NCBI GenBank assembly: GCA_951406725.2
Contig: OX597818.1
Location: 34,038,001 to 34,102,000, forward strand
DNA: 64,000 nucleotides
Source of the DNA: Octopus vulgaris
Taxonomy: Eukaryota
Direction: 5' to 3'
In this document: piece by piece, positions 14,571-14,739 of the stretch
Layout: each line of letters opens with the position of its first letter
How positions within the stretch are numbered: the first letter of the stretch is position 1
Position numbers and translations under genes: made by a program
Notes under the pieces: generated by a model
The model's input: the letters and a program-made list of their open reading frames with translations, nothing else
The model's database searches: none
Told to the model about the DNA's origin: nothing

Positions 14571-14739
14571 TTATATAGAAGGAGCTTCTACAGGACTAGA
14601 ACTGTTTCATTCAAGAGAAATCTTCAGGAAGCTTCCTGAAGATTTCTCTTGAATGAAACAGTTCTAGTCCTGTAGAAGCTTCCTGAAGATTTCTCTTGAA
14701 TGAAACAGTTCTAGTCCTGTAGAAGCTCCTTCTATATAA
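14571..14739. ncRNA. Three hammerhead ribozymes: one on minus, two tandem on plus (47-nt period)
   Basis: Unit AGCTTC-CTGAAGA-T TTC tctt GAA T-GAAACAG-ttctagtc-CTGTA-GAAGCT; perfect 49-bp-arm palindrome centred at 14631/14632. Confidence 0.78.

Follow-up and report, generated by a model that had tools for sequence, protein, structure and literature searches.

A palindromic hammerhead insertion in a (TA)n tract of the Octopus vulgaris genome and its family of about 800 head-to-head copies of a Penelope-like element end

The palindromic locus

The window is a 64,000-nt stretch of the Octopus vulgaris genome (assembly GCA_951406725.2, contig OX597818.1, positions 34,038,001 to 34,102,000), and all positions given below without further indication are counted from its first nucleotide. 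Between two (TA)n tracts, it contains a palindrome that is perfect over arms of 49 nt each (14583-14680), with its centre at 14631/14632, and an exact 47-nt repeat (14628-14674 and 14675-14721), in which the identity extends over 53 nt, to 14727. The hammerhead core CTGAAGA is found twice on the plus strand (14636 and 14683) and once on the minus strand (14627), and an outer inverted repeat of 65 nt is bounded by positions 14571 and 14739. The combination of palindrome and 47-nt tandem is not due to chance. A preliminary description of the locus had already reported the palindrome, the exact duplication and the three cores, together with the self-complementary AGCT of stem I as both inversion centre and tandem junction, and these observations were all reproduced. 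Its assignment of a type I hammerhead anatomy to each unit was borne out as well, i.e., by the core, the stems and a layout that matches published Hydra hammerheads.

The insertion is larger than the segment 14571-14739 that was originally recognized; it comprises 14494-14739, with its left start at about 14494, although the boundary between the left (TA)n tract and the element is ambiguous within a few bases. The extension on the left is a tail of ~70 nt, which was seen in the flanks of most of the family copies compared and is carried by 48 out of 50 consecutive loci. This tail and the parent retroelement, both of which had been missed, explain the structure. Over 14497-14633, the tailed arm is identical to positions 3089-3225 of the parent, L108, at 137 of 137 bases. 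The AGCT at 14630-14633 is the start of the 5' strand of stem I, and would represent the 5' end of the RNA as well as the site where cDNA ends annealed.

The sequence motifs of a type I hammerhead are present, i.e., the core CUGANGA, GAAA, UH and three stems (Table 1). A search of Rfam at gathering scores yielded no matches across the 64-kb window and, consequently, the hammerhead call is based on motif anatomy and on the published table of Hydra hammerheads. When four sets of assembled contigs were compared with the window, a very high-copy repeat was found, and no contig piece spans the locus; in the same four sets, depth falls by two to three orders of magnitude over 14677-14694.

Table 1. 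Features of the insertion in the window and of the parent element L108 (the last three rows are in L108 coordinates; a point marks features without strand).
Feature	Position	Strand	Basis or remark
(TA)n target tract, left flank	14450-14493	.	TRF array 14450-14496
Tailed arm, parent +1 to +140 (hammerhead, AT-rich spacer, tail)	14494-14633	-	Identity to L108
PLE tail, about +68 to +140, on one arm only	14494-14566	-	Sequence comparison
Minus-strand hammerhead copy	14583-14633	-	Core at 14627; predicted to be locked in long hairpin
AGCT overlap of both arms, parent +1 to +4	14630-14633	.	Palindrome centre 14631/14632
Hammerhead unit 1	14630-14680	+	Sequence; idiom matches published Hydra hammerheads
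Unit 1 stem I	14630-14635/14675-14680	+	Sequence
Unit 1 core CTGAAGA	14636-14642	+	Sequence
Unit 1 stem II, closed by U and U	14644-14646/14651-14653	+	Sequence
Unit 1 GAA	14655-14657	+	Sequence
Unit 1 stem III	14658-14661/14670-14673	+	Sequence
Unit 1 predicted cut	After A14674	+	Sequence
Second 47-nt copy, duplication in tail-less arm	14675-14721	+	Joined via AGCT/GAAGCT microhomology
Hammerhead unit 2, predicted cut after A14721	14677-14727	+	Sequence
Tail-less arm end, parent about +46 to +63	14722-14739	+	Passes into (TA)n via AT microhomology
(TA)n target tract, right flank	14740-14850	.	TRF array 14733-14850
L108 first pLTR	2865-3225		
L108 ORF, ATG start to end	3272-5410		712 aa
L108 second pLTR	7649-8007		

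Neighbouring features in the window

A second (TA)n element is located at 13738-14456. It has inverted arms of 151 nt and a different hammerhead-like motif, which lies on the minus strand (core 13847) and of which a partial copy is present near 14005-14050. Its core has 143 exact occurrences genome-wide, and several of these loci show inverted junctions at scattered positions. [quoted passage not shown] Two copies of a SINE-like repeat, interrupted by (TA)n, are present at 14851-15238 and 15491-15897 (direct repeats D5-D7); we take this repeat to be a common octopus SINE. Furthermore, the window contains minisatellites at 46726-47088, with units of 22/24 nt and a higher order of 114 nt, and at 12336-12452, with units of 17 nt.

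A family of head-to-head insertions

The genome searched was a 2.8-Gb assembly in 227 contigs. A first search gave at least 78 matches, from 40 of 493 candidates scored. Counted as exact occurrences, the 44-nt core is present 1,779 times genome-wide (899 + 880), and a reversed-pattern control gave 0. With a pattern that limits the distance between the arms to 24 nt or less, 798 head-to-head junctions were detected, and there are 847 parent-type ends. The window palindrome is one of about 800 stump-sized head-to-head insertions of the hammerhead-bearing end of a PLE and, given the 1,779 exact copies of the core, it does not stand alone. When the tail alone was used as a DNA query, no matches were returned by the search, which skips very common words.

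The parent element

L108 is a complete element, in which a pLTR, an ORF of 712 aa and a microsatellite-rich 3' UTR are followed by a further pLTR. The tail sequence of the parent extends into its 5' UTR and ORF, which is how PLE tails have been described (Frangieh et al., 2024, PMC11167929), and a TATAAA sequence begins 29 nt above +1. The ORF contains the motifs RWR, DKT, YRDD(G), CxCx5C (CNCxDKTTC), CxxC (CDLC) and CxH (CMH). They are conserved in 26 aligned homologs, with RWK or RWR at the first position, except in one that ends before the endonuclease. From the same alignment, VY..YIG followed by R, E and N can be read, indicating an RT with a GIY-YIG endonuclease at the C-terminus in a single ORF. 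No conserved cysteine pair inside the GIY-YIG motif and no CCHH were seen in the alignment with the 26 homologs, where a single, unconserved Cys was present between the GIY- and YIG-like motifs. Homologs of the protein are numerous, i.e., 856 at E <= 1e-20 among 8,000 scored, with a length of about 700 aa, and the identity is 38-53% among the 120 matches listed. Pfam assigned the ORF to no family at the cut-off; two weak matches lay below it.

The Hydra clade of PLEs is defined by these very ORF features, i.e., RW[K/R], DKT replacing DKG, CxCx5C, CxxC and CxH (Craig et al., 2021, PMC8557442). The hammerheads that are listed for this clade in File S2 of the same paper consist of ctgaNgat, stem II and tgaa, several with acag/ctgt and an A at the cut site; as the idiom is the same, the closure of stem II by U and U can be considered typical of the clade. 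TA flanks are found at nearly all insertion ends of 50 loci. Judged by its sequence, the parent is thus assigned to a new family with Hydra-clade motifs within a known kind of element. No description of this PLE family was found in the literature covered, but Repbase and most subscription papers were outside this coverage, and the family may be in print.

Junctions and arm ends

Of the 798 loci, the first 50, which all lie on contig C1, were scored. The long arm ends at parent position +140 in 48 of them and the short arm at +66 to +72 in 46. Exactly one tail is present in 47 loci, none in two and two in one. A similar one-sidedness was seen by eye in divergent pairs at kilobase scale, where one tailed and one tail-less end were found in 16 out of 16 cases, after three of 19 loci had been omitted as same-strand or composite. 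Two other loci have long open endonuclease-RT (LINE-type) ORFs between inverted arms of the same PLE family (L063, 4015-7877, with an additional upstream ORF, and L074, 4304-7348), which represent either nested insertion or capture.

At their inner ends, 56 of the 100 arms start at +1, 13 at +2 and 31 at +3 to +7; none of the 100 reaches upstream of +1. The junctions themselves are diverse, with 26 different strings among the 50 loci, which means that the junction is made anew at each insertion. This diversity contradicts an alternative in which the palindrome would be mobile as an invariant unit, in the manner of a MITE or a fold-back DNA element. The TA targets, the many copies and the long inverted repeats at the ends would suit such an element, but the ends are asymmetric, the tail is one-sided, and the sequence is identical to the 5' end of an RT-encoding element; hardly any probability can be left to it.

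A perfect AGCT overlap is found at 16 of the 50 junctions, in three of these with one later change. Among the 34 imperfect junctions, the base immediately preceding +1 or +2 is a G in 31, as opposed to T or A in the parent. Thirteen of these 31 are also explicable without a cap, by 1-bp T:A pairing, whilst most of the remaining ones require either a cDNA with an additional C or bases added without a template; the null of 3/7 that was used for the G junctions is crude. A composite insert in L079 (480-1110) has its +1 end joined to an internally deleted piece of the 5' part of the ORF, and this end has untemplated A's and a G in front of it.

T34A, which marks a subfamily, is carried by both arms in 23 loci, by neither arm in 26 and by one arm in a single locus. 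Random draws from a mixed pool predict ~25 discordant loci against the one observed (P = 5e-14). Such draws are thus ruled out; the concordance is compatible with a single RNA that was copied twice or with a single active source. Two further discordant loci, L002 and L011, were found outside the 50-locus series, in a search biased towards such loci. T34A is linked to a variant of the tail and turns the core of loop III into a 6-nt palindrome, which would strengthen dimer pairing. Variants that are common to both arms of a locus (+11, +19, +21 and +34) are all located in N7 or in loops. Their placement is no more than suggestive of selection on the hammerhead, since it concerns four sites and no compensatory pairs.

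The concordance of the arms is also what would be predicted if a single, tail-primed cDNA reached the 5' end of the RNA, formed a hairpin on its own AGCT and copied itself into the tail-less arm. However, the 49 concordant loci are equally expected when both cDNAs derive from the same RNA or the same source locus. Furthermore, such a fold-back needs a complete tailed arm, and a tail-less cDNA cannot template a tail. Of 23 asymmetric junctions, 11 have the tailed arm complete, and 12 have a trimmed tailed arm next to a complete tail-less one. A single fold-back fails at these 12 loci, and this explanation is therefore unlikely.

A probable joining of two cDNAs at the 5' end of the RNA

What was observed are the parent (ORF and pLTR), the numbers of copies, the spectrum of the junctions, the invariable ends of the arms and the abrupt stop at +1. 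In the window locus, the first 140 bases of the PLE are inserted head-to-head in a (TA)n tract, and the explanation that we consider probable is that two annealed cDNAs produced this insertion and that the 47-nt repeat arose by a later slip. According to this model, the TATA box in the pLTR would start a capped RNA at +1, so that the hammerhead would constitute the first 51 nt of the mRNA. The RT-endonuclease would nick both strands of the (TA)n tract and prime at about +67 and +140. Both cDNAs would then run through the uncut hammerhead and end at +1 or +2, often with a C templated by the cap, after which their 3' ends would pair by AGCT (16/50) or, in most other cases, by C:G, followed by fill-in. 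The template would mostly be uncleaved RNA, and the insert, lacking a promoter of its own, would be a dead-end product. Longer inserts may result from the same reaction on read-through RNA.

By analogy, the two-cDNA model agrees with in vitro data on the anole PLE. There, both strands were nicked and extended, RT started at two sites bounding the tail, the protein was predicted to be a dimer, and uncleaved RNA was the main template (Frangieh et al., 2024, PMC11167929). In L1, an untemplated 5' G has been attributed to copying of the cap (PMC9341517). Since none of the 100 arms extends above +1 and TATAAA is found at -29, the 5' end of the RNA is placed at +1, and the palindrome centres likely mark where the RNA of the element begins.

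Some observations do not fit easily. The sequence just above +1, pyrimidines followed by AG, resembles a splice acceptor, and helix I marks the end of an intron in Penelope of D. virilis (Cervera and de la Pena, 2014, PMC4209133). A splice acceptor as the cause of the stop at +1 was ranked low, as the arms keep the AG and the upstream bases vary. Also, the D. virilis promoter was reported to be TATA-less and internal (PMC2377424). Moreover, the hard stop at +1 is not replicated by the neighbouring hammerhead family, of which the inverted junctions were scattered in the 30 of 143 loci examined.

By Arkhipova et al. (2013, PMC3846280), the palindromes at inverted, head-to-head PLE junctions are explained by self-priming on an antisense template. 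Although this is the published reading, the junctions in the octopus family cluster at the sense +1, below a sense TATA box, and the extra G is on the sense 5' side of the junctions. In addition, the anole PLE was found in vitro to initiate at the ends of the tail, with an RNA that covers the junction between pLTR and ORF (PMC11167929). Antisense self-priming is, therefore, very improbable here.

The two-cDNA model may be taken one step further. Possibly, the palindromes are frozen PLE integrations, in which an RT dimer copied one capped, uncut RNA twice and the ends were stitched together through stem I; to this extended version we give somewhat less than an even chance. If true, the two priming sites would be ~70 nt apart, and each strand of the target would provide one nick; no antisense template would be needed to explain the tail, its presence on one side only and the inverted pLTR. 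At the extreme 5' end of the mRNA, stem I would then serve as the sequence through which the ends are joined. A two-cDNA model for head-to-head PLE copies was not found in the literature covered; most subscription papers fell outside this coverage, and the model may be in print.

The 47-nt tandem and the folding of the hammerheads

Tandem junctions are rare, with one found genome-wide by a strict pattern and four by a variant-tolerant one. All four loci have two units, inside a PLE palindrome, with the duplication on the tail-less arm. The duplication in L163 includes the junction of the centre itself, which fits DNA slippage. Those in L161 and L164 exclude it and fit re-annealing of a cDNA end by its AGCT to the 3' strand of stem I. 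The tandem in the window fits both routes. Thus, in ~4 out of 800 cases, one cDNA end would re-anneal by AGCT to the 3' stem-I strand, 47 nt off, or the DNA would slip between the GAAGCT repeats; either route would duplicate the hammerhead.

Single-base losses were noticed in the palindromic copies at +45 to +49, i.e., at the cut site and in the 3' part of stem I, with G46 lost in eight and G49 in 11 (n = 156; examples are L034, L030, L130 and L157), and were absent from all 59 parent-type copies. Possibly, these recurrent losses represent long-read errors in hairpins. As a hint of read errors, they could also mean that the tandem in the window is an assembly or long-read hairpin artefact, the palindrome family itself being real. 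However, three other loci have the same kind of duplication with different junctions and variants of their own, always on the tail-less arm, and an artefact is quite improbable.

In the preliminary description, two plus-strand cuts were proposed to release a 47-nt RNA that could circularize, and both strands were thought capable of self-cleavage; the corresponding model is a miniature retrozyme that spreads. Indeed, two complete hammerhead units are present in tandem with GUA sites 47 nt apart, and the locus has the two units by which an active non-LTR retrozyme is operationally defined in a preprint (bioRxiv 10.64898/2026.07.22.740005). Besides, in two of the four loci (L161 and L164) the tandem junction does not reproduce that of the centre, which suggests an event at the level of RT. 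However, the 3' strand of stem I in unit 1 overlaps with the 5' strand of stem I in unit 2. Therefore, the two units cannot fold together, and a 47-nt circle is unlikely. In the predicted structure of the whole plus-strand transcript, stem I of unit 1 has a probability of 0.90 and its full fold one of 0.025. The probability of the full fold drops to 3e-17 for unit 2, to 3e-57 for the minus-strand copy and to 1e-54 for a plain palindrome; these are equilibrium values from a nearest-neighbour model that considers neither tertiary contacts nor co-transcriptional order. Hence, cleavage of both strands is not supported, and neither is the self-releasing circle. In contrast, the suggestion that the antisense arm sequesters copies agrees with the predicted fold, in which unit 2 is locked in a 65-bp duplex.

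The search for longer 47-nt arrays that had been recommended yielded, genome-wide, four tandem junctions vs. 798 palindromic ones, none with more than two units. The cleavage fragment from the 5' end of the parent itself would be 45 nt, with a different junction, and the insert has no promoter. Altogether, the miniature retrozyme is highly improbable, and the 47-nt tandem is likely a rare local copying slip and not a tiny self-replicating RNA circle. In the predicted fold of the whole plus strand, the duplication would allow one hammerhead (unit 1) to sit exposed at the top of a helix of 65 bp; in plain palindromes, the hammerheads would be buried.

Five AGCT-centred loci, among nine, begin at or near the predicted cut site. 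Ultra-short inserts start at TA|GAAGCTCC, i.e., the predicted cut site, in L165, L167, L168, L174 and about 18 more loci. By eye, at least 22 such loci were counted among the first 100 of 114 matches, and the controls gave 22 and 10. These inserts could be copies of cleaved RNA or microhomology deletions. As evidence of cleavage in vivo they were set aside, because microhomologies of 4-6 nt favour deletion in the hairpin.

Significance

On its own, the locus in the window is ordinary transposon debris, but its family is a natural experiment. A mechanism for the inverted ends and one-sided tails of PLEs has been called for (PMC8557442; PMC11167929), and an antisense template was invoked earlier for the inverted ends (PMC3846280). 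The octopus family is young, has about 800 minimal products, a parent with an open ORF, two fixed priming sites and a junction spectrum that can be scored, features that make the two-cDNA model of PLE integration directly testable. The main value of the family, therefore, is in its junction statistics and not in the idea of a 47-nt circle.

Comparison with known systems

For a MITE or another DNA transposon, one would expect a unit that moves unchanged, with both ends symmetric and the interior inherited, which is not what was found here. Non-LTR retrozymes do resemble the window locus in having tandem type I hammerhead units related to those in PLE pLTRs (PMC7229834; bioRxiv 10.64898/2026.07.22.740005). 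However, their RNAs are about 170-400 nt and occur as arrays and abundant circles, whereas the octopus tandem has a unit of 47 nt, two units, four loci and overlapping stems. The octopus tandems thus fall outside the range of a retrozyme family, with its tandem units of about 150-400 nt in dimers to long multimers. The preprint applies a two-unit filter, and its supplements might list similar short units.

The hammerheads of minimal PLEs, as described by Cervera and de la Pena (2014, PMC4209133), are also of type I and located in the pLTR. They share an extra base between A9 and stem II and a palindromic core of loop III with those in octopus, and many copies likewise derive from truncated PLEs or occur as close pairs on opposite strands. 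The octopus hammerhead differs from those in that paper by a full stem III of 4 bp, which makes a monomer fold possible, and by the lack of the G10.1-C11.1 pair.

With the C-terminal EN+ PLEs of the Hydra clade (Craig et al., 2021, PMC8557442), the octopus element shares an RT with C-terminal GIY-YIG, DKT and RW[K/R] motifs, the CxCx5C linker, CxxC and CxH, and (TA)n targets. In the hammerhead, a U before stem II, a U before GAA and the ACAG/CUGU of stem III are also common to both. An inverted, 5'-truncated copy has been described for Penelope-13_HM in the same paper. The octopus element represents a family different from Hydra-1_Obim, of which the hammerhead in File S2 has another sequence. 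Whereas the published Hydra families are generally under 3 kb, the octopus unit measures about 4.8-5.2 kb, because of its microsatellite-rich 3' UTR. Other differences are the stem II of 3 bp, the loop III of 8 nt and the about 800 minimal palindromic inserts.

The closest parallels to the inserts themselves are in the PLE insertions of Arkhipova et al. (2013, PMC3846280) and Frangieh et al. (2024, PMC11167929), which also show a head-to-head copy with a palindromic junction, a tail at one end, AT-rich targets and two RT start sites, one at either end of the tail. In octopus, the tail measures about 70 nt, vs. 30-40 nt in these insertions. Unlike in the PLEs of those two studies, the octopus junction is pinned to one position and has an additional G; this favours two cDNAs made on a sense, capped template over antisense self-priming.
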